Assembly: GCA_000004985.1 (NCBI GenBank)
Contig: GG738868.1
Length of the DNA stretch: 64,000 nucleotides
Source: Naegleria gruberi
Taxonomy: Eukaryota
Direction: 5' to 3' (one strand)
Shown: positions 25,361 to 55,821 of the stretch, piece by piece
Position numbering within the stretch: position 1 is the stretch's first letter
How the letters are laid out: every line of letters starts with the position of its first letter
Notes under the pieces: model-generated
What the model was told of the DNA's origin: nothing
The model's database searches: none
Seen by the model: only the letters and a program-made list of their open reading frames with translations
Position numbers and translations under genes: made by a program

Positions 25361-26746
<1,386 letters not shown>

Positions 26747-35506: not shown

Positions 35507-36409
35507 ATGGTTAATGTTTCGTCTCAATTAAAGCCTCTGATAATATCGAGTAAAGTGAATCCAATTATCAAGGAATGTATTAAGATTAGGACGAAATATT
35601 CTAAAAACTTTAAAAAATGTTTTACCTTTGATCAACCTCAAGTTTTTAAAGGAGAAGAAGGAATTCAATATAAATCTCTTCCAATGTTGATGAATGGATC
35701 AAAGATTATTAGAGAAGCTTCCGAAAAGTATAAAATTGAACCTAAATGGTTGTTTTATAGCTCGGAACAATCCGAAATTAAATTCAAATCTAATGATATT
35801 CAATATTATCAAACTAATGATAATTTAATTAATCATATTTGTGGAGATATTGTTAGTAATGATGGATATTGTGCAGTTTATGATAATTATAATCCTTTTA
35901 AATTATTTGAAAATAAGAAGAAGAGGAATGTTTATATTTATTGTTATAAAGTGAGTGATCCAAATAATTTAGGGTCAATTATTAGAATGAGTTTTGGATT
36001 TGATATTAAAGCAATTTTCTTGAGTGAAGATTGTGTTTCACCTTTTACTGAACGATCAATTAGATCAAGTAGAAATTATATTTTAAATATTCCAGTTTTT
36101 CATTTACCTTTGAAAGATTATAAAACAATTATTTATGATCAATTGAAATGTAAAAAATCATTAATTGCTGATGCTTCAACAGATAGGAAAACTCCAATTC
36201 AAAATTTGAATGATTCTAATGAAGGAGATGTATGTTTAATTATTGGAAATGAACATCATGGATTTTGTGATGATGATTTTAAATCAATTCTTTTACCACA
36301 ATTAGAAAATCAATATGAAGGTATTTACATTCCAATGAAGAATAATTTAGATTCCATTTCCGTTAGTCATGCAGCTTCTATATTAATGTTTGAATTAACA
36401 AAAAAGTAA
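35507..36409 (+). CDS. SpoU/TrmH-family RNA 2'-O-ribose methyltransferase
   Basis: SpoU motifs NLGSIIRMSFGFDIKAIFL, LIIGNEHHGFCDDDFK and SISVSHAASILMFEL. Confidence 0.75.
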   Translation: MVNVSSQLKPLIISSKVNPIIKECIKIRTKYSKNFKKCFTFDQPQVFKGEEGIQYKSLPMLMNGSKIIREASEKYKIEPKWLFYSSEQSEIKFKSNDIQYYQTNDNLINHICGDIVSNDGYCAVYDNYNPFKLFENKKKRNVYIYCYKVSDPNNLGSIIRMSFGFDIKAIFLSEDCVSPFTERSIRSSRNYILNIPVFHLPLKDYKTIIYDQLKCKKSLIADASTDRKTPIQNLNDSNEGDVCLIIGNEHHGFCDDDFKSILLPQLENQYEGIYIPMKNNLDSISVSHAASILMFELTKK

Positions 36410-36417
36410 TAAATAAT

Positions 36418-39052
36418 TTATTTCATTAATTGAGCATCAGCAGAGTACAATGACAAGTTATTAGTAGCACATTCAGTTAAATATTTACATGGTTTGAATG
36501 AGACAATTTCACCATTACTATCTTGATAGAATTTGGTTAATTGGTCATGAATATATTTAGCACCATATTCATCAGCCCACTTCATCAAACCTCCATAGAA
36601 ATGCATGAATCCCATTCCCATAACACTGGCAACATCAATGTCACTAACTCTGAAAACAAGTTTTTCTTCAATTACTCTACAAGCTTCATTAACAGCATTG
36701 AAAAGACAAGCTTCAGCAATTTCCTTATCAGAATAATTCAATTTGCTTGGATTACCAGCTAACTTTCTTGCTTGAGTTAATAAAACTTCCAAACCTTCAA
36801 GATCTGGGCTTCTCTTACCAGTTGAATCATACTTATAGAATCCTAGACTTGTCTTTTCTCCCAATCTCTTTGAATCAATCATGAGTTTCAAAAGAGGTGA
36901 TCCTCTGGCTCTATCCTTATAAGCTCCTCCAATTGATCCTGAAGCATAGTTCAATACATCAACACCAGCTGTTTAAATATTGTTGTAAACTCTATAAAGA
37001 ATTTAAATTAGTGAAAACTTACACATATCAGCCATATTGAAGAAACCAACACGCATAGCAGTTTGATTAATAGCCTTATCTAATTGATATGGATGAACAC
37101 CTCTTTCAATGAGATATTGAGCAGCAATACCATATCTGTCAATGATTCATATAATTATTATTAATATTAAAATATTAAGATATTCACATTTGAAAGAATG
37201 AAATTACTTACGGCCAGAAGATTCTATTAACAGCAAAACCAACAGCATTGAGAACAACAACTGGAGTCTTTTTAACTTGTTTGGCAAATGATAAAGAAGC
37301 ATTCAAAACATTTGAAGTATTATGTTCAGTTCTAATAATTTCCAAAAGTGGCATAACGTGAGCTGGAGTGAAATAGTGAAGACCAATAACACGTTCTCTA
37401 TTCTTCTTATTTGTCATCTTATCTGAAATTCTATTCAAATCAATAGTACTGGTATTAGTAGCTAAAATACAATTTGGTGAACAGTGCTTTTCCAAATCAG
37501 CAAAGATATTTTGTTTCAATTCAACAATTTCCAAAACAGCTTCAATAACCATATCTAACTTGTCAAAGTTTTCAAAAGTAGTTTGAGCTTTGAGTTGTGA
37601 CATGATCTTATCAAATTGTTCCTTTGTCATTCTCTTTCTATCAACTTTGGATTGGAAAACTTTACGAATACGATCTAAACCAGCTTGAGCAGCACCATCA
37701 TTGATTTCCTTAAGAATAACTTGAATACCATTCTCTAAGGCATTTACAACAATGTTAGCACCCATAGTACCTCCACCAATGACACCCAAATATTTAATCT
37801 TTTGAGGTGATGAAGGAGAAGAAGATGAGGATGTTAAATATTTTGGTAATTTTGTGGTGGCCTTAGTAGCAAGGAAATAGTGAACCATTCCACGTGAAAC
37901 AGGTTGATTGGCAATCTTTAAGAATTCTCTACCTTCACAATCTAATCCATAATATCCATTACTGATGAATGAAACACTTTCACGTACAACTCTAATCAAT
38001 GCTCTCAAATGTGGAAGTTTTTGTTGAATTGGATCTAATTTGCTTTCAATTTGATTGACAATTTCAACAGAATTACCTTCTTCAAGTAAAACTTTTGAAT
38101 ATAAAAGTGATTTCTTAATACTTCTCTTTCCATTAATCATTTCTAAAACGAGTTCAATGGCAGAATTTAACAATTTTGATGAATCCTTTTCTAATTTATC
38201 AACAAGACCTAATTCAAATGCTTGTTTTCCTTTGATTGGTTGAGCAGATAACATCATTTCAATTGATTTCTTTGTACCAATCAATCTTGGTAATCTATTA
38301 CAACCTCCAAATCCAGGAATAATACCAAGATTAGTTTCAGGTAATCCTAAAACTGAACTTTCAGTACAAACTCTTCCATTACAACTCATAGCTAATTCTA
38401 AACCACCACCCAAAGCAACTCCATCAATACAAGCAATAGTTGGCTTGTTTTTAGGAGAATTTTCAATTAAATTCATTAATCCATTACCATTTTGAAGGAA
38501 TTGAACTTGTGCATCACTTGTTTGAACATTTTTACCTTGTCCTGAAGCAATTTCTAATTTAATCAATGAATTATCATTCAAAAAAATTATTAAAATCATT
38601 TGAATGGTTATTTGTATAAATTCAAATAATTCAAATTAAAATGAATAAATAATTAAATGAATTAAAATCCATTAATTAACAATATAAAACATACCAGTAA
38701 TATCAGCTCCTGCAACAAAGAAACCCTTCAATTTAGAAGCAATAACAATACCCTTGACTGAATCATCATTGTTAGCCTTTTCAATATTTGTTTGAATAGC
38801 CTTGATAAATCCTGCAGAAAGTGCATTAACAGGACCATCATTCAAATATAATACAACAATTGGATATTGATTAAGTTTTTGATAAATGACACGATCAACA
38901 GAGGCACTACTGGTGGTGGCTGAAGTAAAATTCATCATCATGACAGATCCATCAGTACTACTACTACTACTATTTAATGAAGCGTTATTATCATTATTAT
39001 TGGATGGATATAAGTGATTATAAATTTGTTCAAGACGATGATGTACAACCAT
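36418..39052 (-). CDS. Peroxisomal fatty-acid beta-oxidation multifunctional enzyme type 1 (enoyl-CoA hydratase / 3-hydroxyacyl-CoA dehydrogenase, FadB/EHHADH-like) with N-terminal PTS2; 4 exons
   Basis: Exon 1 (39052..38673) reads MVVHHRLEQIYNHLYPS...VAGADITG with crotonase fold. Exon 2 (38599..37211) carries the hydratase active-site region ACIDGVALGGGLELAMSC, the NAD Rossmann motif GVIGGGTMGANIV and NTSTIDLN. Exon 3 is a short exon of about 37025..37140 (YGIAAQYLIERGVHPYQLD...). Exon 4 runs to the stop at 36418. Introns are GTATGT/GTAAGT...AG. Confidence 0.85.
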
Positions 39053-39236
39053 TTTTTTCTTATGTTTTTTGATCCGATTAACCAAATAGCTCGGAGATGA
39101 TGATGGAAGGAAGGAATAAAAACTTTATCGCTATTTGCAATTCTCCTGATTATTCCGACCTCATGTTTACAAAAATGATTCTTTTTTTATTGACCCACCA
39201 ATAAGAATTTATTGAATTCAAACTTTGTGTGATAAA

Positions 39237-42164
39237 TTACATATCCAACCCAACTCCCATCTTTCTTCTTTCGAGTGCTAATCTTTCGTGAAGTCTCTGT
39301 TTGACAATCATTTCTCTTTCATTCTTGTAGGGAGAGGTATTGAGTATATTTTGTTCTGGTGATGGGAAATGAATATCCCTTGTCAGTTTGATATCTACTT
39401 CTTCCTCAGTTGACGGTTCAAGGGAAGACTCTTCCTTAATTTTCATATCATCATTGGTGGTATTGGAATCACTTCGACTATGGAGAGTTGTTGATGTATT
39501 AGTGGTTGCAGAATGTTCAAGAGTTGAAGATGAAACAGAAGTTGTTGTGGTAGACATAATTTGTTGCTGTTTCACTAATTCTGAAAGGAGGTGATGAATT
39601 TCTTGTGGAGATAATTTGGAAAAGAAATTATCTTTGGAAGATGTGGTAGAGGCATTGAGTGGATCGTCATTTGATGTGATTGGAGGTTGTTCGTCCATTT
39701 CTATTACGTCCATAGTGGGAGTTGGTTGGGTATCTGTAACAACAGCAATTTCTTCATCTTTGGTTGGTGTGAAGGAGAACAAATTTTCAGAACTTGATAG
39801 TACATTAACTCCAAACCGATTGTAATTGTAATTTGTGGAGTAGTCAGTATGTGTATCTTCAAAACTTGTGAGATAATCAACCTTATCCTCATAACTATTA
39901 TTGAAAGATTCGTTAGATTTGAGCTGAGTAATCAAATTTTGACTTTGTTCTTCAATGATTTTGAAAATATTAGAACTACCACTTGCAGGTTGTGGATTTT
40001 CACCTTGTAAACTTTTTTGTTTCTCTGGAGAGACGGAAGGGATTGTAATGGCATTTAAACGAGGTTGTTGTACGATTGGTTGTTGAGGTGGAGTGATATT
40101 TTGCCCAACTTGTGGTAGCCTCCTAGGTTCCAAGCTAGGAATAATGTTACTGGTATTTGGACTTGAAACGTAAACGTTAGAATTCATATTCGAAACGCCT
40201 TGCTGTTTTTTAGAATCACCACCATGTCTCAAAGACGTTTCCCAATGATAAGTACTACAGTTTGCCTTGGAATGTGCCAAATGTCTAAAATCATTAAAGT
40301 TTCTAACATTGGGATTTCCTCTCATTCTACTGTTTTTCTTTCCAGATCTTTCTGGATTGTAAGTTTCTAATATGCTTTTCACCTTTTCCGTTAATTCTGG
40401 ATTTTGTTCACTTACTGAGCTTCTTGAGCTTAAAATACTCTGCGTTATTTCTTTGACTTCCTCTTGTCTGGTTCCTTCCAGAATTGTTGACAATTCCTCA
40501 AATTGTTTTTGCTGTTGAATATTATATTGTTCCATCACAGAAATATATTCTAAAAGGACATTAATATCGTTCTTAGTTTGGTCATGTTGTTCCTTAACCA
40601 TATCAAAAGTTTGAGTTTTCTCTCTATGGTCAATTTCAAGCTTAGATTTGTGTTGGTGGAGAGCTACTCTCATTTTGGAGACTTGTTTTTGCAGCTCGAC
40701 TCTATTCTCTTCGATAGTAATTCTCTTTTGCTTTTCTTCTTTGTACAATTGTTGAATATTTCTATAATTTCTTTGAATTCTATCAAACTTTTTCTTGTTT
40801 TCCTCAGCTTCTGCCAATAGATTTTCATTGGCTGTTCTAAATGTTTCACAATCCAAATTCAAGTTCTTAATTTGAGTCTTTAAAGAGATTATTTCATTTC
40901 TTAGTGCTTCGTTGGATTTTTCAAGTCTGATATTTTCAGTTTGTTCCTCTGCCAAAACTAGTTTTAGGTCATCTATTGCTCTGGCATCTCTCTTTAAGGA
41001 CATTGTTTGCTCATCATCAAATGTTGGCAAAGGTTGATTGTTTAACATTTTAAGTGTTGGAATATTTGGAGGTTGTACAGGAGCTGAATGCGTCAGCCTG
41101 TGAGACTTCTTAGGGGCACTATTTGGCCTAGCTCCTCTAGATGATGAAGGTCGTTCTCTAGACAATTCTTTTGATGCATTTGCTCTTGTTGGTTGAGGTG
41201 TGCTGGGTCTTTTAAAAGATGTAACCGAGGAACCAGTAGAAAAATTATCTCCAGCTTCAGAGCTTGATTGAAAACTGAAACGACGTTTAGAGTTTAATAC
41301 ATTCAGTTTTCTTAAAGAAGATTCAGTTTCGTATTCCATATCCTCATCCGAAGTTATTAATGTATTCATAGTTGAGATAGATTCCTGATCATCCAATAAT
41401 CCACTATTTAAATCCACTGAATCAATTTGAGAAAGTGAAGGGACAAGAGTAGATATTGCATTAGTATGACTAGCTTGTCTACACAATTAGAAAAATTATG
41501 CAATCGTTACAACTTACTTGGAAATTGGATTCCCTCTAATTTTTAAATATTGAAGATTTCTTAAATTTGATAATGCTCTGATTGAATCAATATTTGAAAT
41601 TTCATTATTCATTACATTTAAATCCACTAGTTTTACCAAATGTTCAAGACCATCCAATAATTTAATATGATTATTAGACATGTTGAGGTGAGTTAAATTT
41701 ACAAGAGTTAGAAAAGAACTATAGGTATGATTGATGTGATTATAACTGATATTAAGTTCTTGTAAGGAACACAAGATCTCTATCCCAACAATCTTTGTTA
41801 ATAAATTATGAGAAACATCTAATTTTGTTAGTCCTAGGGGAAGTCCAGATAATTTTTCTATTCATCACCAATTAATCATCCAATTAATTCTTCAAAATCA
41901 CTTACTTAATTTGTTTCTAGATAAATTTAAAATGTTGAGGGAAGTAAATGTTTGTAGATTTGATAACCGATGAATGTCATTCCTAGATAAGTCTAAACTT
42001 TTTACTAGACTAAGAGTTTTTTTATCTTCCTCTCCACCGAACTGTATAAATTACAATGGTGATGATTTGTAAAATTGATGATGTTATTATTGAGTGATTT
42101 ATTAAAAATATACCTTATCTAAATCGATTTCTTCAATTTCTTGGCCAGCGAAAGAGATGTGCAT
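39237..42164 (-). CDS. Leucine-rich-repeat (SDS22-type) plus long coiled-coil protein, S/T/P-rich tail; multi-exon
   Basis: 5' exons encode LRRs (MHISFAGQEIEEIDLDK; LQELNISYNHINHTYSSFLTLVNLTHLNMSNNHIKLLDGLEHLVKLVDLNVMNNEISNIDSIRALSNLRNLQYLKIRGNPI). The 749-aa 3' exon has a long coiled coil (ENIRLEKSNEALRNEIISLKTQIKNLNLDCETFRTANENLLAEAEENKKKFDRIQRNYRNIQQLYKEEKQKR). Confidence 0.6.
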
Positions 42165-42389
42165 TATTTTTTTAGATTTGAAGGCAGTTTACATGATTTC
42201 TCCAAACAACAATACAACTTTCCCGCCACTTCTTCTACAAAGAAGTAAAACATTCAATGATGGGCTGCATGATGATTCAATAATTTTATTTGTAGTTGTT
42301 CATCAATTGATTCAAAATGATTAAGAATTCGTCTCTCTTGATCAGAGGAACAATGAAAAACAATGAAAGAATGAAGTGGTATACATGTA

Positions 42390-43037
42390 TTAAAGATTCA
42401 ACTGGTATGAATTATAGAAACTTCCTGAAAAGTGTACTTCTCTATTGCAATCCAATGATTTAATAACCCACTTGAAATCTCTACCCTTAGCTCTTTCCTT
42501 CTCTAAAGACAATTTTGTTTTTGGAGGAAATATCATTCTAAGCACTTTATCCATTGCATTTTTATCAAAATGATTACCTTCAATTCTAATGATTGTTAAA
42601 TTCTTAGTAATATCAAGAACATCATATAATGTATTAACTCTCCTACTATCCAATTTAGAATATGATAAATCTAATTCTGTGATCTTTTCTGCCAGCAAGG
42701 TAGGTGTCTCTCTTCTAGTATCAATCGATTCTTTCAAAGTTGAATAATAAACTTTACTATAATTATTTCTTCTAATCATTCTCAATAAAACTGTGGCACT
42801 TTCATAGTTGTGAGCGGAGAATTTAAAATTATCAAATCTTTCAAACACAACATTGAACCACGTACGATTAATTCTCAAGCATGAAAAAAACAAATCTTGA
42901 GTTTCCAAATATTTCATAATCTCATAACAAACATCACCTGAAAACTTATTATCATTCTCCGCTAATAAAGGTTCATATTTTGTCTTCTTTTTTGGTTGAT
43001 CAGTTTCTTCTCTTTTCCTTCTTGCCATTTTTTTCAT
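42390..43037 (-). CDS. F-box-like protein
   Basis: 215-aa ORF. It has a basic N-terminus and the F-box-like segment DVCYEIMKYLETQDLFFSCLRINRTWFNVVF. Confidence 0.5.
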   Translation of the reverse strand: MKKMARRKREETDQPKKKTKYEPLLAENDNKFSGDVCYEIMKYLETQDLFFSCLRINRTWFNVVFERFDNFKFSAHNYESATVLLRMIRRNNYSKVYYSTLKESIDTRRETPTLLAEKITELDLSYSKLDSRRVNTLYDVLDITKNLTIIRIEGNHFDKNAMDKVLRMIFPPKTKLSLEKERAKGRDFKWVIKSLDCNREVHFSGSFYNSYQLNL

Positions 43038-43319
43038 GTTATTTGATTTTTATTAATCCACGTATTTCTGGAATAAAAAGTGACAAGTTGTAGAGCATGA
43101 AAATTTGTTTGTCTTCAATCCTTTGAATGTAATTACAACAACTTTCACAATATTTTGTAAACAACTTCAATCTTACTATTTGATTTATTAATAATTTGAA
43201 GATGAACTTTGAAAAGCAAAAAACCCAAAATGAACTTGGCCAAACAGTAAACACTTTAAAAAAAAAATCAAAACACACCAACTTGATTATTCACTTGCCA
43301 CCGATCGTTATACAAAAAT

Positions 43320-44414
43320 ATGCAAAGTATTCTCCAATTACCTCCTGAACCATTGGGAGTGATTTGTTCGTTTATTTGTGATGAACCCGAATTAATTAAA
43401 TCCTTCATGATTACTAATAAGGATTGGTATTATAATTTATATATGGATGAGAATTCTAATATTTGGGCAGAGATTGTAACATACCGAGCAGATAAGAATA
43501 TTTTGGAACAATTTATGAAGGAAAAGCAAGATCGTTCCTATAGAGAATTAGTATTTTCTATTTGGAATGAAATGTCTGGTTATGGAGGGAATTCATTATT
43601 TGTTTTCAAGAATAATGAAAATGGTAATTTAGCTCAACAAGTAGGAATGCAAGTAAAATTTGATGATGAGATGGCAAATAGATTTAAAGGAACTGATGGG
43701 TTTACAGTTGAAATGTGGATTAATTTTAAATTGCATACCTTCTTTCCAGTCATGTGTTGTTTAACTGATAGAGATTGGAATAATGGTTTTGGATTATTTG
43801 AATATACAAACGGAAACAATGAAGAAAATCCAAATACTATTAACATGTTTGTACAAGATTGGTATCAAGATCCAAATTATTTCACTACAGCTCCAATTCC
43901 AGATGTGAATGAATGGAATCATTTTGCTGGAGTTTTCAGTTATGCAGATAATACAGTCAGGATTTATAGAAATGGTCAATTGATAAATTGTAAAACAATT
44001 ACTGATCATAATATTCAAATAAGTTCAGATATGAATTTGGTGATTGGTTTTTCTGATTATTCAGGTGATATTTCTTATCATGTTATTGGTGAATTTAATG
44101 ACATTAGAGTTTGGAATGTGGCTCGATCTGATACTGAAATTTCAGAATATTACAATAAGAGAATTACAAAACTAAACTTTTTGAATGAGAAAGAGTATGA
44201 AGGATTAGTTTTCAATTTTTATCCATCAGTGGAGGATACTAAGGAAAATATCAAGAACAAATCACCAAATCCAGAATACAGAATTGAGAAGTATGATATT
44301 GTAGATAATGCAGCAACAGATATTGCAACCTCTGAAGTTGATAAAATGGGGAAAAGTCTACTTTCTAAAATGTGGTCGAGTGCCTATTCCACAATAAAGA
44401 AGGTTTTCAAATAA
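43320..44414 (+). CDS. F-box-like plus concanavalin A-like lectin (LamG-type) domain protein
   Basis: The N-terminus LPPEPLGVICSFICDEPELIKSFMITNKDWYYNL is F-box-like. The C-terminal jelly-roll signature ...LVIGFSDYSGDISYHVIGEFNDIRVWNVARSDTEISEYYN is typical of LamG/ConA-like domains. Confidence 0.55.
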   Translation: MQSILQLPPEPLGVICSFICDEPELIKSFMITNKDWYYNLYMDENSNIWAEIVTYRADKNILEQFMKEKQDRSYRELVFSIWNEMSGYGGNSLFVFKNNENGNLAQQVGMQVKFDDEMANRFKGTDGFTVEMWINFKLHTFFPVMCCLTDRDWNNGFGLFEYTNGNNEENPNTINMFVQDWYQDPNYFTTAPIPDVNEWNHFAGVFSYADNTVRIYRNGQLINCKTITDHNIQISSDMNLVIGFSDYSGDISYHVIGEFNDIRVWNVARSDTEISEYYNKRITKLNFLNEKEYEGLVFNFYPSVEDTKENIKNKSPNPEYRIEKYDIVDNAATDIATSEVDKMGKSLLSKMWSSAYSTIKKVFK

Positions 44415-44508
44415 AATCTTCTTAAATTGAATTAATTTTATATATGGTTTATTTGAATAGTTTAAGCATTTCACTAGATCAATAAAACAATAAGATCATT
44501 CTTCATTA

Positions 44509-46532
44509 TTATTGTACTAAACACTTCTTTGAATGAGATTTACCATAATTTTCATCTCTACTGATTGCAATTGCTTTCAATATAATTTCACTCAAATCAT
44601 CAAAACCATATCTTTTTTTTGAGCTAGTTTCAATATAAGTTATACAACCTATCTTTTTAGCCATCAACTCTCCTTCTTCAAATGTGATTGGATTTGTATC
44701 ATATTTGAGAAGAAAAATTGGATCAGTGCGATAGTCAACCTTATTATTCACCAATATAATAGGTGTATCAGGACAGTGATGTCTAATTTCTGGAATCCAT
44801 TTGAGTGCAACATTGAAAAATGAATTTTCTGCTACGCAACTAAAGCTCAGTAAGAATAGAGATGTATCTGGATAATTCTATTAATCAATTAGTCAACTGA
44901 TAAGATAGGTTATTACTTACCAATGGACGTAAACTATTGATATTGAAAAATATTGAAATATATAAAACAACCTACCAATCATAATCTAAAATCGATGAGT
45001 AGAAATAAGTATTTTCATAACTACTTACCTTCAGGACCAGCAGTATCCCTTTCAAATGTCAATTATTCATATTGACTCAATAAAACTTACCATAGACCAA
45101 TTAAATAACTCTTTCCCTCAACTCTGACACTCAAATCATAATTATCAAATATTGTTGGAATGAACTCTTCTGGATAGCTACCTGTAGCATATGTAATATA
45201 TAATGATGTTTTACCAACTGATCCATCACCAACCTGAATTATCTTTTCACTTGCAGGAGGTGAATATTTTTCTAACATTTCATTCATTTGAGAGTATTGT
45301 AAAATTTCAGATGATTTTGAATAATGTTTACCATCTAAACGTTGTGTTGCTTTTCTAATTGTCCGTATTCTTTTAGAATTCTTCTGTTCAACTTTTGACA
45401 ATATGGATTGAATTGTTTCAATTAGAATTTGTCTAAAATTTGATGTTTTAAGTAAATTTAATTCAAATAGATTTGCTTGAGAGAAATATTTTGATGCAAT
45501 TTTAAATTCCTTCATCTTTTTTAAATAAAAATCTTTCCAAAATTGATCTTCACTTGTTAATTCACAAATTCTTAATGATTTGGAAACTAAATGTAATTTC
45601 ATTAAATCTTGAATATTAAGAAATAATAGAATTGATCTTAAAATATCATCATTCAGATTCTTGAATAGTTCAATATTAAATGAAAATGTCAAAATGTCAC
45701 AAGTCATTTGAAATCCTCCAAATATAAAATAATTAAATGAAGAATCAATGGGAATTTGAACTAAAGTGTGGAGACATGGTCTAGCTACTTCCTTATCATT
45801 GAAAATATTCGAAAGTGAATGATTTTTTTCAATTTTCCAACCTTCACTAATATTTTCCAAATCAAGACATGTACAATCTGTGAAATCTTGATTTAGATTA
45901 CAACCACCAATACTATATAACTTATTTCCTTCCAAAACCATTGAATGTCCATATCTAGCAAAATTATCATTCAAAATAATCTCAGCTTGACATTTGACAT
46001 TTCCAACATTTTCCAATGAATCAAGTGAAATCTTAATTGTATCCTTAATAATTGAATCATAATTTCTACCACCATGTATATACCACTCTCCTGTTTCATT
46101 ATTTAACACGGATGCATGATAATATCGATGTGAAATTACTTCTTGACTTGAATCAATTTCCACTCTTGTCCATTCCATATTTGTAAAATTAAATTTAAAT
46201 AATTCATTTGATGCAAAATAATTTTTACAATTATATCCACCAAATATAAATAATTGATTTTTAAAAATTACACTTGAATGACCATATAAAGGTGGAATTA
46301 ATCTATCTTTGGAATTTAATTGTTTCCATGAATTATTTGTAAATTCATATATCCAAATATCATTATGAAAACTATTAATAGATTTACCTCCAAATAAAAT
46401 CATTTCATTTGAATTTCTTAAATTGGTAGTATGACAATTTCTTGCACATGGAATTAATTTTTCTATTGAATGATTCGGATCAGTTAATATTGTTAAATTT
46501 CTCCATTTTTTAGTTGTAATATCAAATTTCAA
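44509..46532 (-). CDS. Kelch-repeat + F-box + Rac-family small GTPase fusion protein with CAAX box; catalytic Gln replaced by Pro; GTPase part in several small exons; 5' end unresolved
   Basis: The large exon (46532..45087) carries Kelch motifs (MILFGGKS..., QLFIFGGYN..., WYIHGGRN..., KLYSIGGCN..., YFIFGGFQ), the F-box DDILRSILLFLNIQDLMKLHLVSKSLR and the start of a Rac domain IIQVGDGSVGKTSLYITYATGSYPEEFIPTIFDNYDLSVRVEGKSYLIGLW. Downstream exons read DTAGPE (Q61 to P) and LRPL. The last exon NYPDTSLFLLSFS...HHCPDTPIILVNNKVD... ends with the polybasic CAAX tail KSHSKKCLVQ. Confidence 0.7.
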
Positions 46533-46816
46533 TTAAATCATTACAATAAATTGAATTTTTTAAACAACCTCCGAATAGATAGAGTTTATTCTCTCTATTA
46601 ACAATACTACTACCAATTCTAATATTACAGCTGGTAAGTGGAAGATTGAGAAGATTCAAATAACGTCATTTTTTTTTAAAGTTGATATTTTGTAAACTAT
46701 TTCAATGTTCCTATCACCAATGATAAACTTGCTTAAACTTTCAAAAAAACGACTAAATATATGTAATATAAATATATATAAATAATTAAATATATAATAA
46801 TAATAAATAATAAATT

Positions 46817-49800
46817 TTATTCATTTCCATTTCCATTAATTTGAACATATTGTTGTAAAATAGTATCGATTGGAATGTCAGGATTTCCTTTTCCTTTTTG
46901 AAAAGTTTCTTCATCTTGATAACGTTGATGTAAAATGTGTGCAATCATTCTATTATATTCCTTTTTAAATTCAATTCCAATTAATTTAATATAATAAAAT
47001 AAAATAAATGCTAATAAACAAATTGAATAAATTGACATTTGAATTATAAATGTTGAATAAACTGAATGAATTGAATCAACAAGTAAACAAATTAAACATC
47101 CAGGTATAGTAATTACTATATTAATTATAAAAGTACCAATTAAAGGAATGTATGAATTTGTATAATTATGTGATAAAATAAACATTTGATAACAATTCAT
47201 AAAAACATAAATAATACTACTTGTAAATGATACAATCCAATATTGTTGTATTATTTGATCAATATTTTTAACTATTGTTGAATCTGATGTTAATTTAACT
47301 CCTTCCATTACTATATTTGTAATATCAGTTACTAAATATATACAAATAAATATTAAAGTTATAATTAAAAGTAATAAAATTGATTTAATATTTAAATAAA
47401 TTAATCCTTTGTAATTTAATCTATTTATACATCTTCTACTATATATAGTAATTAATGAATTTCCTAATAAACAAATTTTAATATAAATTAAACTATAACA
47501 AGTAACAATAATAAAAGAAATAAATTCACTTGTAGAATAATTATAATAAATTATAATTGAATTAATTATATAAATTATTAAAGTTGAAAATGAAAATCCA
47601 AATATAGTTAAATAATTTCCAATTAATCTTTTAAAAATAAATTTATCAAATTTAAAAAAATCATTATTATAAAAACAAAAACATGAAATTCCCTTTTTAG
47701 TAAATAACATTAATAAAATTGAAATTATTAATGGAAATAAATATGAAATTCCATAAATTAATGAAATATAATAATAAATTTTATCATTAAATGCATGAAT
47801 AATTTCTGATTTTGGAATTAATAAAAATACTATATATAGTAATACACCAAATATAATTGTAAAATAAACATGAACAAAATTATAAAAAGCAATAAAAATT
47901 GAAATAAATAATAAAATAAAATTATAAAATAAAATATTACTAATATTAAAATAAAATATAAATTCCCAAACTGTTGATCTATTTATAGCATAAAATATTC
48001 CAAAACTGGCAGCATATTGTAAAATACTTGATAAAAATGTTAATATGAATGAAATTAAAACAATTTTACCAATAAAAGAATTTGATAAAAATAATTTTGA
48101 ATTTTGAATATCAAATAATTCACGATGATAATAATATTTAAATATATTCATTCTATAATTAGTAATATCCATAAATAGATAAATAATAATTGGATACATG
48201 AAAATTAATTCTAAAATTAAATTAATTGTAAATAAAATAATAAACATTAAAGAACTATCATTATCAATAATATTAAAAGTATTATTAATTAAATATTTTG
48301 TACTAATAAATGTCATGATAAAAATAGATGAAATTAAAATAAATAATTTTGTAATTGAACTTCCATGTGAATATTCTTTAAATGAAGGATGAACAATTAA
48401 TGATGACATTGGTTCTGATTTTCTCATTAACCAATCATTTTCATCAAATTCATTAGAATCTTCTGAATCTGAATTATCATTTTCAATATTTAATAGTGAT
48501 GTACTACTATTACTATTCCACCTCCACCAACACCACCTCCACCTCCACCAACCACCAAATATACTATTAGATGATGTTAAATGTTGTGATCTAATATTTG
48601 AATGATTTGAATGATGATTATTTGGATGAATGGATTGTTCTTGTGAAATGGATTGATAATATTCATTAAATGCCTTTTCCTTAATTGAACTTTGAAAGTT
48701 TTGTTTCACTACCAACATTGAAATATCACTCATTAGAGATTGATTATTACTATTATTATTATTATTGGAATGTAAATCTTGAAATGCCTTATCCAATGGA
48801 TTTGTCTTTTCAATTGGTGCTAAAAGTTGAATTTTTTTACGTTGAGTTGAATTGATAGAATTTGATCGTTGTTCAAAATCTTGATTATTATTAACATTTG
48901 AATTTTCATTCTTTTCAGTTGACATGATAAAGAATGAAGTAATATCATCAATAACCAATGATTGTTCTGAGGTTTCTTCTTTTTTAGATGAGGAGAATGA
49001 ATTCATTTTTCTTGTTGTACTTGTTGAGAGAGCACTGAATGAACTTGATTTACCTGGTAATTGATTAATTGATTTCTTTGTTGATTTTACAACAACTTTA
49101 ACTTCATCTTCATCATCATCATCATCGTAATGATCATAAACTTGTCTCTGACCTAAATATTGAGATTCCTCTCTGGCCAATTGTTCATCCTTTAAAACAT
49201 TCATATCAACTTCATCATCATTATTTTCATTATTATTATTACTATTATATTTCATTAGACTTGATAATTGTTGTGCAATGTCCATTCCATTTCTAACAGA
49301 TTGACGATTATTCATTACAATGGCATTGGAATTATAATTTTTAGAACTTGCATCTAAAATATCTGGAATTGAAGACATGGTACTCATATTCTCATCAGTT
49401 AAACGATCATCTTCATCATCCTGATCATCTCCACCATCTTGATCATCATCCTGATCATCATCATCATCATCGTCACTTGATGCTTCAGTCATTTCATTAC
49501 TCGTTGGGAGAACATCAAGAAATTGAATGGATTGATTCACTTCTTTAAATTTATCAATCCACTTGAACATTTCATCTGAATTATTAGTCTTTAAATATAA
49601 TACTCTCTTTTTTGTTACAATTTTAAATATATTAAATTCATTCTTAAATTCATTAAAACATTCAACAATAATTGATTTATCAATATTTAGTGATCCCTTC
49701 TTTTTCTTCTTTTTTTCATCGGTATAATAGGTTAATTCAGATTCATCATGAAATACAAAATATCTACGTTTCCAACTCTTTACAATTTTACCTTGTTTTT

Positions 49801-50173
49801 GTAAAAATCCTTCAATATGTACATCTTTCTCATTATTATTGTTAGAATTAGAAGAATTATTAGTACGAATATTACGACTATTACGATTATTATTGTTATT
49901 ATTTGATGATGAATTATTGTTATTATTACGAAGCCTAAAACTTGAAAATATTGATTGTTGATTGGATGAGTTTCCAATATTATTATTAGATGATGATGGT
50001 GTAGTATTAGATGATTGATTAAAAGAAGATTCATCCTGTCCACCCAATGTAACCACTGGTAAATTATTGATGGTATTTCTCTGATTGTTGGGATTCATTG
50101 GAGTGGATAAATTATTGAAATCATCATTGGTACGAAATGATGAGGTTGTTGAATGAAAGTCATCATTATCCAT
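46817..50173 (-). CDS. PH-domain protein with C-terminal polytopic (about 12 TM) membrane domain, long N/S/D-rich disordered linker
   Basis: Single 1118-aa ORF. The N-terminal PH domain is IEGFLQKQGKIVKSWKRRYFVFHDESELTYYTDEKKKKKKGSLNIDKSIIVECF...MFKWIDKFKEVNQ. The C-terminal 550 aa hold many hydrophobic helices with no family I recognise. There are poly-N, poly-D and a (CCA)n-encoded W/R tract. Codon usage is extremely AT-rich. Confidence 0.65.
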   Translation of the reverse strand: MDNDDFHSTTSSFRTNDDFNNLSTPMNPNNQRNTINNLPVVTLGGQDESSFNQSSNTTPSSSNNNIGNSSNQQSIFSSFRLRNNNNNSSSNNNNNNRNSRNIRTNNSSNSNNNNEKDVHIEGFLQKQGKIVKSWKRRYFVFHDESELTYYTDEKKKKKKGSLNIDKSIIVECFNEFKNEFNIFKIVTKKRVLYLKTNNSDEMFKWIDKFKEVNQSIQFLDVLPTSNEMTEASSDDDDDDDQDDDQDGGDDQDDEDDRLTDENMSTMSSIPDILDASSKNYNSNAIVMNNRQSVRNGMDIAQQLSSLMKYNSNNNNENNDDEVDMNVLKDEQLAREESQYLGQRQVYDHYDDDDDEDEVKVVVKSTKKSINQLPGKSSSFSALSTSTTRKMNSFSSSKKEETSEQSLVIDDITSFFIMSTEKNENSNVNNNQDFEQRSNSINSTQRKKIQLLAPIEKTNPLDKAFQDLHSNNNNNSNNQSLMSDISMLVVKQNFQSSIKEKAFNEYYQSISQEQSIHPNNHHSNHSNIRSQHLTSSNSIFGGWWRWRWCWWRWNSNSSTSLLNIENDNSDSEDSNEFDENDWLMRKSEPMSSLIVHPSFKEYSHGSSITKLFILISSIFIMTFISTKYLINNTFNIIDNDSSLMFIILFTINLILELIFMYPIIIYLFMDITNYRMNIFKYYYHRELFDIQNSKLFLSNSFIGKIVLISFILTFLSSILQYAASFGIFYAINRSTVWEFIFYFNISNILFYNFILLFISIFIAFYNFVHVYFTIIFGVLLYIVFLLIPKSEIIHAFNDKIYYYISLIYGISYLFPLIISILLMLFTKKGISCFCFYNNDFFKFDKFIFKRLIGNYLTIFGFSFSTLIIYIINSIIIYYNYSTSEFISFIIVTCYSLIYIKICLLGNSLITIYSRRCINRLNYKGLIYLNIKSILLLLIITLIFICIYLVTDITNIVMEGVKLTSDSTIVKNIDQIIQQYWIVSFTSSIIYVFMNCYQMFILSHNYTNSYIPLIGTFIINIVITIPGCLICLLVDSIHSVYSTFIIQMSIYSICLLAFILFYYIKLIGIEFKKEYNRMIAHILHQRYQDEETFQKGKGNPDIPIDTILQQYVQINGNGNE
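48520..48560 (-). repeat. (CCA/CCT)n-type simple repeat inside PH-TM CDS encoding a W/R-rich tract
   Basis: Plus strand ccacctccaccaacaccacctccacctccaccaaccaccaa. The minus-strand frame reads GGWWRWRWCWWRW. Confidence 0.7.
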
Positions 50174-50382
50174 TTTTTAACGTCAATGATTTTAAAATCA
50201 TAATCAAATAATTATTAACATTTGACAGTTATTATAATTTTAAATATCTCTTTAATATCAAAAATATCATTCCTTTCTCTCTTAATACTAGAATCTCAAG
50301 TCTTAGCAATAATTAACAATTCTATAGCTTAAATTAAAGCCTTCAATAATGAAAAGAAAAATTCCGAAGGCTTTGAAAAAAA

Positions 50383-50829
50383 ATGTCTGAAGAAATAACC
50401 TCAACTACCACCACAACTAACGTTCAAGAATCATCAAGTTCCGAATCAACCTCATCGGAAGTTATTACCATCACAGTTAGATTAATTAAAAGTTTCCATT
50501 ATAGAAATATTAAATTATTAATCTTGAAGGATATTAAAGTAAATGAATTAACTGGAAATGATTTATTGAAATTAGTTTTGGAAAAGATTGAAAAGGAATC
50601 AGGTTTGCTTCCACATCGTGGACGTAAATATGATACATTTAAATTATATCATCATGCCTTTTCGTTTAAAGCAAATAATTTAGTTGTTAATTTACAAGAT
50701 GATGATAAATTAATCTTTAAAATGGATAAAACTTTGAAGGAAAATAATGTTGATAATGAAGCTGAAATTAGTTGTTTCATTATGGATGAATATTTGGAAT
50801 TCAAGAAAAATCCAGAATTGAAATGGTAA
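50383..50829 (+). CDS. UPF0538 family protein (C2orf76-like)
   Basis: ITITVRLIKSFHYRNIKLLILKD...RKYDTFKLYHHAF...LQDDDKLIFKMDKTLKENNV...EISCFIMDEYLEFKKNPELKW parallels my recollection of human C2orf76 (ITVRLIRSFEHRN...YDTLKI...DDDRLLLKEDSTLK...FFCEEDYKNYKANP). Confidence 0.5.
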   Translation: MSEEITSTTTTTNVQESSSSESTSSEVITITVRLIKSFHYRNIKLLILKDIKVNELTGNDLLKLVLEKIEKESGLLPHRGRKYDTFKLYHHAFSFKANNLVVNLQDDDKLIFKMDKTLKENNVDNEAEISCFIMDEYLEFKKNPELKW

Positions 50830-50833
50830 AAAC

Positions 50834-51613
50834 CTATTTCTTTTGAATTAAATCTAAAAATTGTACTAGAGAAATAAACAACTCTGGTTTTTCTTCCTTT
50901 TCCTCACCTGAACTTGAATCCTCTTCTTCATCTACTTTGAAAAATTCACTATCATTTCCTTCTGATTTAACTTTTTTAGGAGGAGGTTTTTCATTCTTCT
51001 TAGTGGGAGAATTTTTAGATTTCTTCTTTTCCCATCTTTTCATTTGAAGATTATATTCCTCCTCTCCCAAAATATGTTTTACAAATAAATCAAACTCTGT
51101 TTCACTTTTTAATTGATCAACTCCCATTTCAAATAACAGCTTTTTCAATGCTTTAATTGGTATATATCGTTCTCCAAAACTATTCAAAACAAAGAATTTT
51201 GCAAATATATCCTCATAATCGACATCTTTTTCCAAATCATATTGTCTACTCAATATATCAAGAAAATCACCAAATGTAAAGAATTCATCACCAGATTTTA
51301 AATGTTGATTGAAATGAAACATTAATTGATCACTGGTCGGTGCTGCTCCACATAATCTCAAACATTCTGCCAAGTCCGAATAAATATTTAAAGCCTTAAT
51401 GTTTTTTTGTTTTTGTTTTCTATCGACAAGAACTCTCTGATAAACTCTTTCATAGTTTTGAATTTTGGCTATTGAAAATTGAAAGAGTGATTTGTTTCTA
51501 TCCATATAATTTCCACCAATCCTTGTTAGTGAGGGAGAAGGAGTTGGACGAGAGGATGATGTTGATGAAGTTGAAAAAGTAGGAGTAGATGAAGCCTTGA
51601 TAAAGGATGACAT
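50834..51613 (-). CDS. Hypothetical protein with EF-hand-like pair and K/E-rich tail
   Basis: 259-aa ORF ending 4 bp from the convergent UPF0538 gene. The EF-hand-like helices are DEFFTFGDFLDILSRQY...IPIKALKKLLFEMGVDQLKSETEFDLFVKHI. Confidence 0.4.
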   Translation of the reverse strand: MSSFIKASSTPTFSTSSTSSSRPTPSPSLTRIGGNYMDRNKSLFQFSIAKIQNYERVYQRVLVDRKQKQKNIKALNIYSDLAECLRLCGAAPTSDQLMFHFNQHLKSGDEFFTFGDFLDILSRQYDLEKDVDYEDIFAKFFVLNSFGERYIPIKALKKLLFEMGVDQLKSETEFDLFVKHILGEEEYNLQMKRWEKKKSKNSPTKKNEKPPPKKVKSEGNDSEFFKVDEEEDSSSGEEKEEKPELFISLVQFLDLIQKK

Positions 51614-51799
51614 TTTTTTATGCTATGAATTGAATTGATGGTATAATCATTTGATGGTTACTTTAGTTGATTATTAATCAGTTATTAATTACGAGAGGAA
51701 ATACATATGTATTTCAAACTACTGGTAATCTTATGTAAATTGAGGGAGATGAAATATTTGATGTCTATTGAAATATTTCAATAGTTATTAAATGTTAAT

Positions 51800-52357
51800 T
51801 TATTGTAAAACAATTTCCATTAAATAACAATCTTTACATTCATTTTCAGGTAATCTATCATTAATATAAAAGTTTTCAAGCTTTTTAATATTCTTAAAAC
51901 CAATCTTTTCATAAAATTGAATTGCACTTTCATTTGTGCATTGAACATGAAGATGACATCTATCAATTGAAAACTTTTTACAAATTTCAAAAACTTTGGA
52001 AATTAATTCACGACCAATTCCTAACTTTCTATATTTTGGTAATACACCTAATAACATTAAATAAATTGATGGATTTCCTTCACAAGAATCAACTCTACAT
52101 GAAAAACTTCCGACTGGTATATCATTGAAAATTGCAAATTGATTAAATTCTGGTCCTTTTTGAAGTATTTGTTCATATACAGATTCTCTGTATTTAATTG
52201 GATAAATATAATTATTTAAAATCTTTAATTGTTCAATATTCTTATCAATAATTCCCAACAAGCGTAACTTTTGATTCTCTCCAAGCTTTTTTTGACTGCT
52301 ATGTGATGAGAAGAATGAACGATGGTCAATTAAATTGGCTTGATTAGTAGTAGTCAT
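51800..52357 (-). CDS. N-alpha-acetyltransferase 50 (Naa50/NatE catalytic subunit, GNAT fold)
   Basis: GVLPKYRKLGIGRELISKVFEICKK...CHLHVQCTNESAIQFYEKIGFKNIKKLENFYINDRLPENECKDCYLME matches the Naa50 acetyl-CoA binding and C-terminal regions (RRLGIG...LHVQISNESAIDFYRKFGF...NYYKRIEP). Confidence 0.72.
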   Translation of the reverse strand: MTTTNQANLIDHRSFFSSHSSQKKLGENQKLRLLGIIDKNIEQLKILNNYIYPIKYRESVYEQILQKGPEFNQFAIFNDIPVGSFSCRVDSCEGNPSIYLMLLGVLPKYRKLGIGRELISKVFEICKKFSIDRCHLHVQCTNESAIQFYEKIGFKNIKKLENFYINDRLPENECKDCYLMEIVLQ

Positions 52358-52633
52358 ATTAATATCCGATATATATTGTTAATAATGATGATGATGAAAA
52401 TTAAAGCCAAAATAATAATGAAGAAAAAGGCTAATTTTTTTTAAATTTCAATTTTACATTTCAAATGATGATTATTGCAAATTGTATTATTGTTTAGTTG
52501 TAACAAATTACAATCACGTTCATTGGTTTCGGCTACGTAACCTGATGATGATGACAATGATAATCTTCATCAATAATGAACCAACAACACAACTTGTAGC
52601 CACAACAATACATCGAAGGCTAATTTTAAAAAA

Positions 52634-54180
52634 ATGTCTTCGTCTGATAACAACAACACTCCACCACCATCAGCATCATCATCTTCTAGTGGTAGTCAAC
52701 AAGAAGAAAAGCAACGTATCACTCAAGAAGCTATTCAAAATGTTGCCAAATATCTTCCAAATGAAGATAAAAAGAGAGCCGAACAAGAAATCACCAAGGA
52801 TAGAAAATTCTGGAACAATCAACCTGTACCAAAGATTCGTAAGTTTAGCATATTTAAGACTCTAATAGTAGTATTCATTGAATTCCAACCATTGATTATT
52901 ATTTATACAATTTGATATTATAATACAAAATCATAATCATCATACAATAATTCTTCATCATCATCTTTATAAACACTTTATTATTAATACATATATATGA
53001 AATTACAAAATGATGGAAAATAGATGAAAAGGTTGATCAATTAGGAGAAATTGAAACTAGAACTGTGGATCAAGTACAAAAAACACCATTTGCCTTACCA
53101 AAAGGTTATGAATGGTACAATTTGGATGTTGATAATGATGAAGATATGGGTAAATTGTATGCATTATTAGAAGGTAATTACGTAGAAGATGATGATGCCA
53201 TGTTCCGTTTTGCTTACACAAAGGAATTCTTGAAATGGGCATTGGCACCACCTGGATATAGAAAGGATTGGCATTGTGTTGTTAGAGTTGAATCATCAAA
53301 AACATTTGTTGCATTTATTGCTGCTATTCCAATGTTAATTGGATTACGTCACCAACAAGCTGAAAGTGAAGAAAAATTCGATAAGAATGTTAAAATGGTT
53401 GAAATTAACTTTTTATGTGTTCATAAGAAATTGAGAGATAAGAGATTGGCACCACTTTTAATTGGTGAAATTACTAGACGTGTTAATTTAACAAATGTTT
53501 GGCAAGCTATTTATACTGCTGGTGTTGTGATTCCACGTCCAATTAGCAAAGCTAGATATTATCATCGTAGTTTAAATCCTGAAAAATTAATTGATATCAA
53601 ATTTAGTTCAATTCCAAGCTTTGCTCGTAGTTTTTCAAATCCAATGGAAGTTACAAAGAAATATTATAGATTGAATCCAAAAGAAAAGATTCCAAATATT
53701 CGTCCTTTAAAGTCGAAAGATTGTGCTCAAGTTGCTGCATTGTTAAATGATTACTTGTCAAGTTTCAAAGTTGCACCAATTTTCACAAAGGAAGAAGTTG
53801 CTCACTGGTTTATCGGTAGAGATGGTGTTATTTATTCATTTGTTATTACAGGTGATAGTGATGATAAGATTATTGATTTTATTTCATTCTATTCACTTCC
53901 AAGTACAATTATTGGAAATCCAAAACATCAAGTTTTGAGAGCTGCTTATTTATTCTTCTACACTTGCAAAAATACCAAAGTTGAAGAATTAATGAAGACT
54001 GCTTTAATTGAAGCTCAAACAAGAGATTTTGACGTTTTCAATTGTGTTAATATTTTGGATAATAAGGAATTTTTGGACAAGCTTAAATTTGGTACAGGTG
54101 ATGGTTATTTGTACTATTATTTATTCAATTACAAATTCCCAGATTTGGAACCAGAACAAGTTGGTTTAACAATGCTTTAA
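52634..54180 (+). CDS. nmt: Glycylpeptide N-tetradecanoyltransferase (N-myristoyltransferase); 2 exons (52634..52838, 53024..54180)
   Basis: Exon 1 ends ...RKFWNNQPVPKI with a GTAAGT donor in phase 1. Exon 2 (acceptor AAAATAG) continues HEKVDQLGEIETRTVDQVQKTPFALPKGYEWYNLD...NYVEDDDAMFRFAYTKEFLKWALAPPGY...EINFLCVHKKLRDKRLAPLLIGEITRRVNL...FGTGDGYLYYYLFNYKF...GLTML. There is near-colinear identity to NMT1, including the catalytic C-terminal carboxylate. Confidence 0.92.
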
Positions 54181-54257
54181 ATTATTAAAATTTGTAAAGT
54201 TTTAATTTTCATTGTATTATTAATATTATTATTGAAAATGATCGTTCATTCAATAAT

Positions 54258-55821
54258 TCAATTGTGTTTGCTCGAATATTTAACTTTTCTTACTACTATA
54301 TCAATTTGAGAATTTAGGTATTTTACAATTTCTGGAGTATGTTTGAATGCTGATTTGAATTGTTCATTCTTTCTCAATATCTCAAGGTTATCACCTAAAA
54401 AACTACTAATATCAAAATTTGCTAATTGTTCAGATTCTTCTGCAAAATATTTTAATAAATTTTGTAAAATTTCAATATTTTCATTGTCCAGTTTTTCTAT
54501 TTCGTTTAAATATTTTACAATAAAGAAAGCAATAAATTCAAATAAATTATTCTTGTTATATATTTTAAAAAACATTAACTTGTGTCTTTTAAATTTATCT
54601 AAACGTTTTAAATAAACAACTAAATGTTTAAATATAGTAGTAATTGTTTCATTTAATTTTTTTAAATAATTATTATAGTTATTTTTCACAGTTAAATATT
54701 TAATAAATTTTTCCACTTTCTTATTAATTTTAATATTTTCCCTTTCTTTCATTAAACCTCTATATGTGGATGACCATTTAATTTCTTTCTTTTTTTTACA
54801 TTTTTTATCATCATCAACACACATTAATAATTTTTCAAAATCTGTAGTATTATCTTTAAATTTATAATTTTCAAAGATATTAGGTTTTTTCTTCTTCTCT
54901 TGTTGAATAATGATATATAATAGATGATTCTGATGAATAATGATAAGACAAATTATTATTATCATCTTGATAATCATCATCATTATCATCATCATAGTCA
55001 TCATTATAATTATTAGCAATTAATTGATGTTTATATACAAAATCATTATTATTATTATAAAAATATTTTTCATCATAATAGGTTAAAGGTTCAGAATACT
55101 TAAAATGAATTGAATTTTTCTCTCTATTATTTTTTTCAAATCCTTGATAATTATTTCTAAATTGAAACTTTGTTTCTTGTAAATTATTTATAATACATTT
55201 TAATATTCTTTTTTTAATATTTTTATTTAATATATCAGGTAATATATTTTTAATTCTAATAATTTCCTTTTTTAAATAATATCTTAATTGACTTGAACTA
55301 TTGTTAGAAAAAGAATGTTCACTTGGTATTGTATTTTCATAATATTTTTTAAACCCTTTTCTTCTATTTACTTTAATAGTTAAATTATGACTTTCCAATT
55401 TTGTAATTATTTTTTCTAAATTTATTTTTAAATAATAAAAACATAATTTTTTATATAAAATTTGATGTTTATCATAAATTTCTAAATATATATTTAATTT
55501 ATTTGATACTTTATATAAATTATTACAAATATCATGTAATGTTAAATATTTAAATACATGTCTAGTCCATATTTCAATTGGTAATAAATCAATTATATTA
55601 TTATTATTATTATTATTTGAATTGTTGTTATTAATAGTTTTATTATTATTAAATAATATTATTGTATTGTTATGATGATGTTTTAAATGATCAATAGAAG
55701 AGGAAGGTGAATATAATTCATTATCATCATTTAAAGTATTTAATGATGATGATGAATATAAATTATTATTATCATTATCTACTATTATTAAAGGAGAAGA
55801 TGGTGATGATGATGATAACAT
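54258..55821 (-). CDS. F-box-like hypothetical protein, extremely N/K/Y-rich; 2 ORF segments (55821..54880, 55019..54258) needing an intron or frameshift
   Basis: The upstream segment contains the F-box-like IDLLPIEIWTRHVFKYLTLHDICNNLYKVSNKL. The two segments overlap by 140 nt in different frames. AT content is about 85%. Confidence 0.4.

Follow-up and report, generated by a model that had tools for sequence, protein, structure and literature searches.

Can one gene specify a Kelch propeller, an F-box, and a Rac-type GTPase in a single polypeptide, and what would such a protein do? The question is raised by a minus-strand gene at 46669..44509 of a 64,000-nt stretch of Naegleria gruberi DNA (GenBank assembly GCA_000004985.1, contig GG738868.1), called the window throughout. 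An original prediction made from the sequence had described an unusual Kelch–F-box–Rac fusion with proline at the catalytic glutamine of switch II and a C-terminal prenylation box, and each element that it named was found where it had been placed. From the comparisons below, we read the locus as N. gruberi XP_002677266.1, one of several paralogs of a heterolobosean Kelch-F-box-Rho family whose members would be substrate receptors of a Skp1-Cul1-F-box (SCF) ubiquitin ligase equipped with a slow, farnesylated Rho module, the window copy being either damaged or misassembled. Taken as a whole, this reading is rather probable.

The fusion is contained in one reading frame. The main exon (45091..46532) is free of stops over 481 codons, and its 3' end (...SYLIGLW) lies at a GTAAGT donor. 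A Pfam scan of the assembled protein recovered all three of the predicted domain types: the Kelch propeller (5.5e-54 for Beta-prop_ATRN-LZTR1 and 9e-53 for Kelch_KLHDC2), the F-box (21 bits, against a cut-off of 20.5 bits), and the Ras family (2.1e-38). Rac1 chains were the closest among solved structures (3.6e-55), with G1–G5 aligned, and the spliced model keeps the frame and runs colinear with Rac1, as had been proposed, with GT..AG ends on all four introns. The encoded order is a six-blade Kelch propeller, the F-box, a helical linker of approximately 90 residues, the Rac-like G domain, and a short basic tail with CxxQ at its end. The six blades are recognizable when counted by the GG/W repeat pattern in the family alignment, the first of them lying in another frame in the window copy. 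It was considered whether the Kelch/F-box and Rac parts could be two neighboring genes joined in error. No positive evidence for this was found, and the predicted splicing matters for the microexon region only; the F-box, linker, P-loop, and switch I share one uninterrupted open reading frame (ORF), and the same fusion is already annotated, or can be read from the sequence, in at least five further species. A misjoin is therefore extremely improbable and was rejected.

The GTPase core had also been predicted to be split into very small exons, and these measure 20, 10, and 13 nt. A paralog on contig L002, a near-match to N. gruberi XP_002672362.1 with 63% protein identity to the window gene, shares all four introns and all three microexons. 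The microexons are identical at 41 of 43 nt (20/20 for microexon 2), whereas the introns of the two genes align at 63–70%, equal to the value for unrelated introns of the window gene compared with each other. Near-identical microexons between introns at background level indicate that the microexon cluster is real; together with the Rac1 match, they place the predicted fusion far beyond chance. Birth of the introns by duplication was tried as an explanation and rejected because the similarity among the four stays at background level. The only two nucleotides at which the microexons differ (44976..44977 and 44933) belong to one codon, which is AGA (Arg66) in the paralog and TGT (Cys) in the window; the single-step intermediates between the two would encode serine (AGT) or a stop (TGA). 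The donor of intron 1 (after LW) is at the same position in L002 and in a third relative, L004; in N. fowleri and N. lovaniensis, the gene has two introns located elsewhere, after GKTS and after DYDRLR. The microexon cluster is limited to a subgroup of N. gruberi-type paralogs; it is unusual and without evident functional meaning.

In the GTPase domain, the motifs GDGSVGKT, Thr35, DTAG, NKVD, and ETSS are present, switch I (FIPTIFDNY) is well conserved, and a Rho insert lies between beta5 and alpha4, with a net length three residues shorter than in Rac1. The predicted CLVQ box is encoded at the C terminus, directly followed by a stop (44523..44509), and prenylation is predicted. Under the CaaX rules, a terminal glutamine directs farnesylation, as opposed to the geranylgeranylation of Rac1, and by this analogy the CLVQ tail points to farnesylation. 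The catalytic Gln61 is absent: its place is taken by a CCT (Pro) codon at 45035..45033, which gives switch II the sequence DTAGPE. The substitution was thus read correctly in the original prediction, but the constitutively GTP-bound state deduced from it is not supported, because HRAS Q61P hydrolyzes GTP approximately 8-fold more slowly, like Q61L, yet is equivalent to the wild type in transformation assays and non-transforming (Der et al., 1986, as summarized in PMC6813200). Slowed hydrolysis with Pro61 is a fair inference from HRAS. A glutamine-to-proline change in DTAGQ was also seen in the N. gruberi F-box-Ran protein XP_002677020.1 (LWDTAGPEKFG) and in two Ras-family paralogs; of the sequences that Herman et al. 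(2021; PMC8296547) list in their Table S8, four have DTAGP and 36 have DTAGQ, and the substitution recurs across GTPase families of the N. gruberi genome.

The closest homologs are heterolobosean, namely FDP41_007326 of N. fowleri and C9374_001827 of N. lovaniensis (40% identity across 98% of the length), and another four of the window ORFs match N. gruberi NEG-M proteins exactly, all encoded on one 427,589-bp scaffold; the dictyostelid origin assumed in the original prediction does not hold. Because exact N. gruberi proteins occur in both halves of the window, the stretch is not a chimera. Further matches were a N. gruberi "rho family small GTPase" relative and two metagenome proteins. An exhaustive profile search added full-length members in Willaertia magna (two proteins), Acrasis kona, N. 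gruberi (XP_002672610.1), and environmental contigs, so that full-length relatives are known in N. fowleri, N. lovaniensis, N. gruberi, W. magna, and A. kona; many shorter F-box-linker-Rho proteins of approximately 350 residues were recovered by the same search. A second protein search, based on a word index with a 17-sequence alignment as the query, returned nothing further.

Proline at position 61 is not peculiar to the window gene. In the family alignment of 17 sequences, 13 reach switch II and 11 reach the C terminus. The motif DTAGPE[DE]YDRLRPLSYP is found in nine of the 13 (the window gene, its paralog, N. fowleri, N. lovaniensis, both Willaertia proteins, Acrasis, and two environmental sequences), and the remainder have glutamine, glycine, or a disrupted switch II motif; eight of the 11 end in CxxQ. 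Pro61 and CxxQ therefore recur from Naegleria and Willaertia to Acrasis, which argues that they are old family traits and not errors. For N. fowleri, the box is masked by the annotation: the annotated FDP41_007326 protein ends in ...SDSKRSV and a stop, whereas the +1 frame gives KKKCLMQ and a stop, a polybasic CAAX box resembling those of its relatives (L001 8260..8312, VFQX01000003.1). The frame error probably stems from a 1-nt indel in that assembly or from a mutation specific to the strain. Transcription of the N. fowleri family member seems likely, as g11947, the identifier of Rac42, appears in the differential-expression table of Herman et al. (Additional file 12, PMC8296547) with a log counts per million of 5.45, a log fold change of 0.84, and a false discovery rate of 0.34. 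Outside the Heterolobosea, a transcript of the amoebozoan Stenamoeba stenopodia (EukProt transcriptome) has the order Kelch, F-box, Rho, CAAX, with DVSGGGED in switch II and CQMM at the tail; it could be a product of convergence, transfer, or contamination.

The architecture, which the original prediction did not recognize from characterized proteins, is already catalogued. In a re-annotation of the N. gruberi and N. fowleri Ras superfamily, Herman et al. (2021; BMC Biol 19:142, PMC8296547, Additional files 4 and 10) noted F-box/Kelch-GTPase fusions in Naegleria and proposed GTPase-dependent ubiquitination. Their Table S8 contains the window sequence as XP_002677266.1, a "Rac" entry with the additional domains "Kelch, BTB, F-box"; the corrected sequence given there starts LKFDITTKKWRNLTIL..., and the approximately 400 residues shown are identical to the window ORF; the published sequence likewise lacks an N-terminal methionine. 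The family members in their lists comprise N. fowleri Rac42 (NfowleriV212_g11947) and N. gruberi XP_002677266.1, XP_002672362.1, XP_002672610.1, XP_002668324.1, and XP_002670347.1. Relative to the available parts of that article and its files, three points appear to be new: the conservation of Pro61 and CxxQ from Naegleria to Acrasis, the presence of switch II on three conserved microexons in N. gruberi paralogs, and the loss of the CAAX box from the annotated N. fowleri protein through a frame error. The literature search returned no functional work on the family.

The F-box is the element that would connect the protein to ubiquitination, and its score in the assembled protein is close to the threshold; when the region was scanned alone, the score rose to 24.8–27.3 bits. 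Pfam F-box-like was matched by 22 of 25 family members. A profile built from the 25 family F-box regions and run against the PDB gave 31 matches, all of them F-box proteins or F-box-bearing domains, with FBXO3 the best (8.1e-10) and FBXW7, FBXL5, beta-TrCP, and Skp2 among the others. At the level of sequence, the F-box assignment is solid, and the SCF-adaptor role suggested in the original prediction is a reasonable reading of this profile. Apart from the F-box, no Pfam family matched the linker at E <= 10. A BTB domain was likewise not found by Pfam at E <= 10 in the window protein or in four relatives, and the published "BTB" label was not reproduced.

These features suggest how a member of the family might work. 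The F-box would dock on Skp1-Cul1, recruiting Cul1-Rbx1, and make the protein a substrate receptor of an SCF ubiquitin ligase; targets could be recruited by the Kelch propeller, the Rho domain, or both. Farnesylation of the C-terminal Rho module would place the ligase on membranes, where its activity may perhaps be gated by that module. With proline in place of the catalytic glutamine, GTP hydrolysis would probably be slow, and the response to GTPase-activating proteins possibly poor. The Rho module may then behave like those of the atypical Rho proteins (RhoBTB, Rnd, and RhoH), which are controlled by abundance and not by a fast GTPase cycle, and the functional role would be that of a Cul1 counterpart of RhoBTB-Cul3. 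More broadly, and only tentatively, the Kelch-F-box-Rho(Pro61)-CxxQ proteins and the shorter F-box-Rho, F-box-Ran, and F-box-Rab relatives could form a heterolobosean class of SCF ligases in which a built-in, slow, lipid-anchored GTPase sets membrane location or substrate choice. Such a class would be an independent Cul1 parallel to RhoBTB-Cul3, with the recurrent glutamine-to-proline change as a specific adaptation. If so, Naegleria and its relatives would have wired small-GTPase signaling into ubiquitin ligases many times over, providing a natural experiment on the gating of protein degradation by GTPase state and perhaps giving access to amoeboid cell biology in a genus with a lethal pathogen.

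Several observations weigh against this mechanism. The family F-box carries LN where LP is usual. The Kelch propeller is N-terminal to the F-box, opposite to the usual layout of F-box proteins, and the domain on the C-terminal side is the GTPase. Since HRAS Q61P is not transforming, Pro61 may act otherwise than by locking the active state. An AlphaFold2 prediction for the N. lovaniensis homolog, made from a six-sequence alignment, had a predicted local distance difference test score of 48.8 and a predicted template modeling score of 0.45, with even the G domain unresolved. The position of the GTPase also bears on a different view of the family, in which the Rho-like domain is a pseudo-GTPase with no switch function, serving as a farnesylated membrane anchor or as a binding surface, for example as bait that brings Rho effectors, guanine nucleotide exchange factors, or guanine nucleotide dissociation inhibitor to the ligase. 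In the shorter F-box-Rho relatives, the GTPase is C-terminal to the F-box, which is the usual position of a substrate-binding domain; relatives vary at position 61 (G or H) or have it deleted, and the conserved switch I keeps an effector-type surface. However, the window copy and most relatives keep G1, G2 (Thr35), G4 (NKVD), and the greater part of G5, which argues for retained nucleotide binding, and we regard a pseudo-GTPase as unlikely. A slow GTPase on an SCF receptor remains our preferred description of the family.

The frameshifted 5' end of the window copy went unnoticed in the original prediction. The prediction of one continuous exon held for the 481 unbroken codons but not for the N terminus, where the start codon and blade 1 lie in two other frames and no ATG-initiated N terminus exists. 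Three frames are involved in all: that of the ATG, that of blade 1 (...NIRIGSSIVNRENKLYLFGGC...NDLIEI and a stop), and that of the long ORF. The start of the L002 paralog is the equivalent ATG after the same A-run. Two 1-nt shifts fall within the first 48 codons and within 140 nt of each other; at the second of these, an extra T makes a TGA and shifts the reading into the main ORF. With one T removed from each run (46660..46658 and 46526..46524), a 662-residue protein results, and its N terminus aligns with the homologs from the first methionine. Otherwise, no in-frame ATG precedes the intact part, and the first ATG in the frame of the main ORF is at residue 43, so that starting there would drop approximately 1.5 blades. 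A tiny intron bridging the N-terminal frames was also considered and rejected, as the sole GT..AG pair in the region is only 10 nt long. Because blade 1 is in other frames and no in-frame ATG precedes the intact part, the window copy is either a damaged paralog or affected by assembly errors.

There is close to an even chance that the copy is a recently inactivated pseudogene, in which two real +1 insertions broke blade 1 and its connection with the start codon, while the remainder has not yet decayed. The proximity of the two shifts, the lack of an ATG in the blade 1 frame, and the loss of 1.5 blades from any product of the main ORF all fit such an event, as do signs of relaxed conservation further along the protein. 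At family-conserved columns (agreement of at least 90% of the other members), the window protein departs at nine of 91, including the blade 1 His, a Kelch Arg in blade 3, Arg66Cys in switch II, and Ser71Asn, whereas the paralog departs at two of 87, and the proteins of N. fowleri and N. lovaniensis each do so at a single column. The window copy also has extra deletions in the linkers and in the Rho insert. Against the paralog, a rough Nei-Gojobori estimate gave a synonymous divergence (dS) of 0.48 and a ratio of nonsynonymous to synonymous divergence (dN/dS) of approximately 0.5 in every domain; the ratio would suit a pseudogene, and the two values together fit a family that evolves fast and has expanded recently. 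For the F-box-carrying Rab-like clades, Herman et al. (PMC8296547) describe birth-and-death evolution in which some copies are disrupted. Some observations count against damage. Past the frameshifts, 617 codons are open and all eight splice sites are intact, with GT..AG retained in the four introns, and the damage could accordingly be a sequencing artefact. The excess of unique changes in the window protein over the paralog is modest, at 1.05–2 times when both were compared with eight outgroups. In the published table, the "putative pseudogene" column is blank for this gene (PMC8296547).

The gene could instead be intact and functional, the two shifts being homopolymer-length errors in the reference assembly. 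Shift 2 is in a TTT run, and shift 1, which is less precisely placed, is at or near another; deleting one T at each restores a frame that aligns with homologs from the ATG on, the remainder of the gene looks selected, and the site borders a low-GC stretch (0.19 at 46–48 kb) on a scaffold with a 1,019-nt gap. Two errors in 140 nt would be unusual, however, and the long flanking ORFs are free of errors. Nor was a second assembly of the locus found: a scan of metagenome DNA for an allele across frameshift 2 gave 0 matches, and the protein searches returned no near-identical protein. Misassembly is thus possible but on the improbable side. The adjacent 1118-codon ORF is error-free in DNA that is even more AT-rich, which makes generally poor sequence here unlikely, and conservation in the window copy is relaxed; for these two reasons, we lean slightly toward real, recent damage over two assembly errors.

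Features of the Kelch-F-box-Rac gene and its upstream neighbor, with coordinates in the window
Feature	Coordinates	Strand	Remarks
Presumed ancestral start ATG	46667..46669	-	Opens a 14-codon frame only (MTLFESSQSSTYQL, then stop)
T-run, candidate frameshift 1	46658..46660	-	Deleting one T links the ATG frame to blade 1; position approximate, paralog alignment loose here
Kelch blade 1 (LNLPLTSCNIRIGSSIVNRENKLYLFGGC...NDLIEI, then stop)	46522..46659	-	Frame differs from those of the ATG and the main ORF; no ATG; aligns to homolog N termini
T-run, frameshift 2	46524..46526	-	GAAATTTGAT in the window versus GAAA-TTAAT in the paralog (DNA alignment)
Six-blade Kelch beta-propeller	45693..46630	-	Approximate limits; out-of-frame blade 1 included
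Main exon/ORF	45091..46532	-	481 codons: end of blade 1, Kelch blades 2–6, F-box, helical linker, P-loop, switch I
F-box (KNLNDDILRSILLFLNIQDLMKLHLVSKSLRICELTSEDQFWKDFYL)	45522..45662	-	Pfam match over cut-off
Family-specific linker	45246..45521	-	Approximately 90 residues between F-box and GTPase domain; conserved in the family alignment
P-loop GDGSVGKT (G1)	45207..45230	-	Gly12 kept
Intron 1	45049..45090	-	42 nt, GTAAGT..AG, within the Trp codon preceding DTAG
Microexon 2	45029..45048	-	20 nt, DTAGPE; Pro codon CCT at 45035..45033
Intron 2	44986..45028	-	43 nt
Microexon 3	44976..44985	-	10 nt, DYD and bases 1 and 2 of the Cys codon (Arg66 in relatives)
Intron 3	44934..44975	-	42 nt, GTAGGT..AG
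Microexon 4	44921..44933	-	13 nt, final base of the Cys codon and LRPL
Intron 4	44878..44920	-	43 nt
Last exon	44509..44877	-	369 nt, remaining Rac-like domain (NKVD, shortened Rho insert, ETSS), SHSKK, CLVQ, TAA
CLVQ box	44523..44512	-	Followed by TAA; terminal stretch ...SHSKKCLVQ
Upstream neighbor	46817..50173	-	148 nt away; 1118 residues; PH domain (1.9e-17); Asn/Asp-rich tracts

The gene is located next to a change in base composition: GC falls from 0.324 in 1..44500 to 0.226 in 46670..64000, the drop occurring just upstream of the gene. ORFs to the right of the gene are rich in poly-Asn and poly-Asp tracts, and the gap mentioned above is an N run at 61274..62292. The C-terminal half of the upstream neighbor (46817..50173) is long and hydrophobic, with the look of a multi-pass membrane protein; its product had no exact match in the gene-position collection, and exact-product look-ups returned none for two neighboring ORFs and none for P0005. 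F-box-like N-terminal motifs were noted in four small neighbors, at 13015..13761 (-), 42390..43037 (-), 43320..44414 (+), and 54880..55821 (-). Only the first of these reaches Pfam F-box-like (1.1e-08); 43320..44414 combines its F-box-like N terminus with a ConA-like/Laminin_G_3 domain (6.3e-17), and 42390..43037 and 54880..55821 gave no Pfam match. Scans of the 64-kb window for transfer RNA genes and Rfam families were empty, and a scan for bacterial-type promoters and terminators was set aside as irrelevant to a eukaryote.

Among known systems, the Naegleria Kelch-F-box-Rho paralogs have the same architecture, and DTAGPE and CxxQ are held in common with FDP41_007326 (CxxQ in the +1 frame) and C9374_001827. 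The window copy differs from these relatives in its frameshifted blade 1, in Arg66Cys, and in its shorter linkers and Rho insert, and its four introns are common only to close N. gruberi-type paralogs. RhoBTB is similar in that a Rho-family G domain off the catalytic consensus and a cullin-RING ligase adaptor are joined in one polypeptide. In RhoBTB, the G domain is N-terminal, the adaptor consists of tandem BTB domains, the partner is Cul3, and the mammalian proteins have no CAAX box. The window protein, by contrast, has a C-terminal G domain, an F-box adaptor of the Cul1/Skp1 type where no BTB match was obtained at E <= 10, an added Kelch propeller, and a CxxQ box, and the domain order is reversed. 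The conceptual link to RhoBTB was also made by Herman et al. (PMC8296547). The F-box/Kelch proteins, such as the plant FBK family and human FBXO42, likewise combine an F-box with a Kelch propeller, and the precomputed Pfam labels on the homologs include Beta-prop_FBX42. In the FBK family and FBXO42, the F-box is N-terminal to the Kelch repeats and there is no GTPase, whereas the order here is Kelch, F-box, Rho. The top Pfam match of the propeller is the Attractin/LZTR1 beta-propeller family; LZTR1 is a Kelch-BTB Cul3 adaptor for RAS-family GTPases, with BTB-BACK as its adaptor and the GTPase as a separate substrate, whereas in the window protein the GTPase is fused in the same polypeptide and the adaptor is an F-box. 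Rac1 is colinear with the G domain through G1–G5, switch I, and the Rho insert, and the window protein differs from it in Gln61 to Pro, Arg66 to Cys, and Ser71 to Asn, in a CLVQ tail in place of CLLL, and in the approximately 470 residues that precede the G domain.

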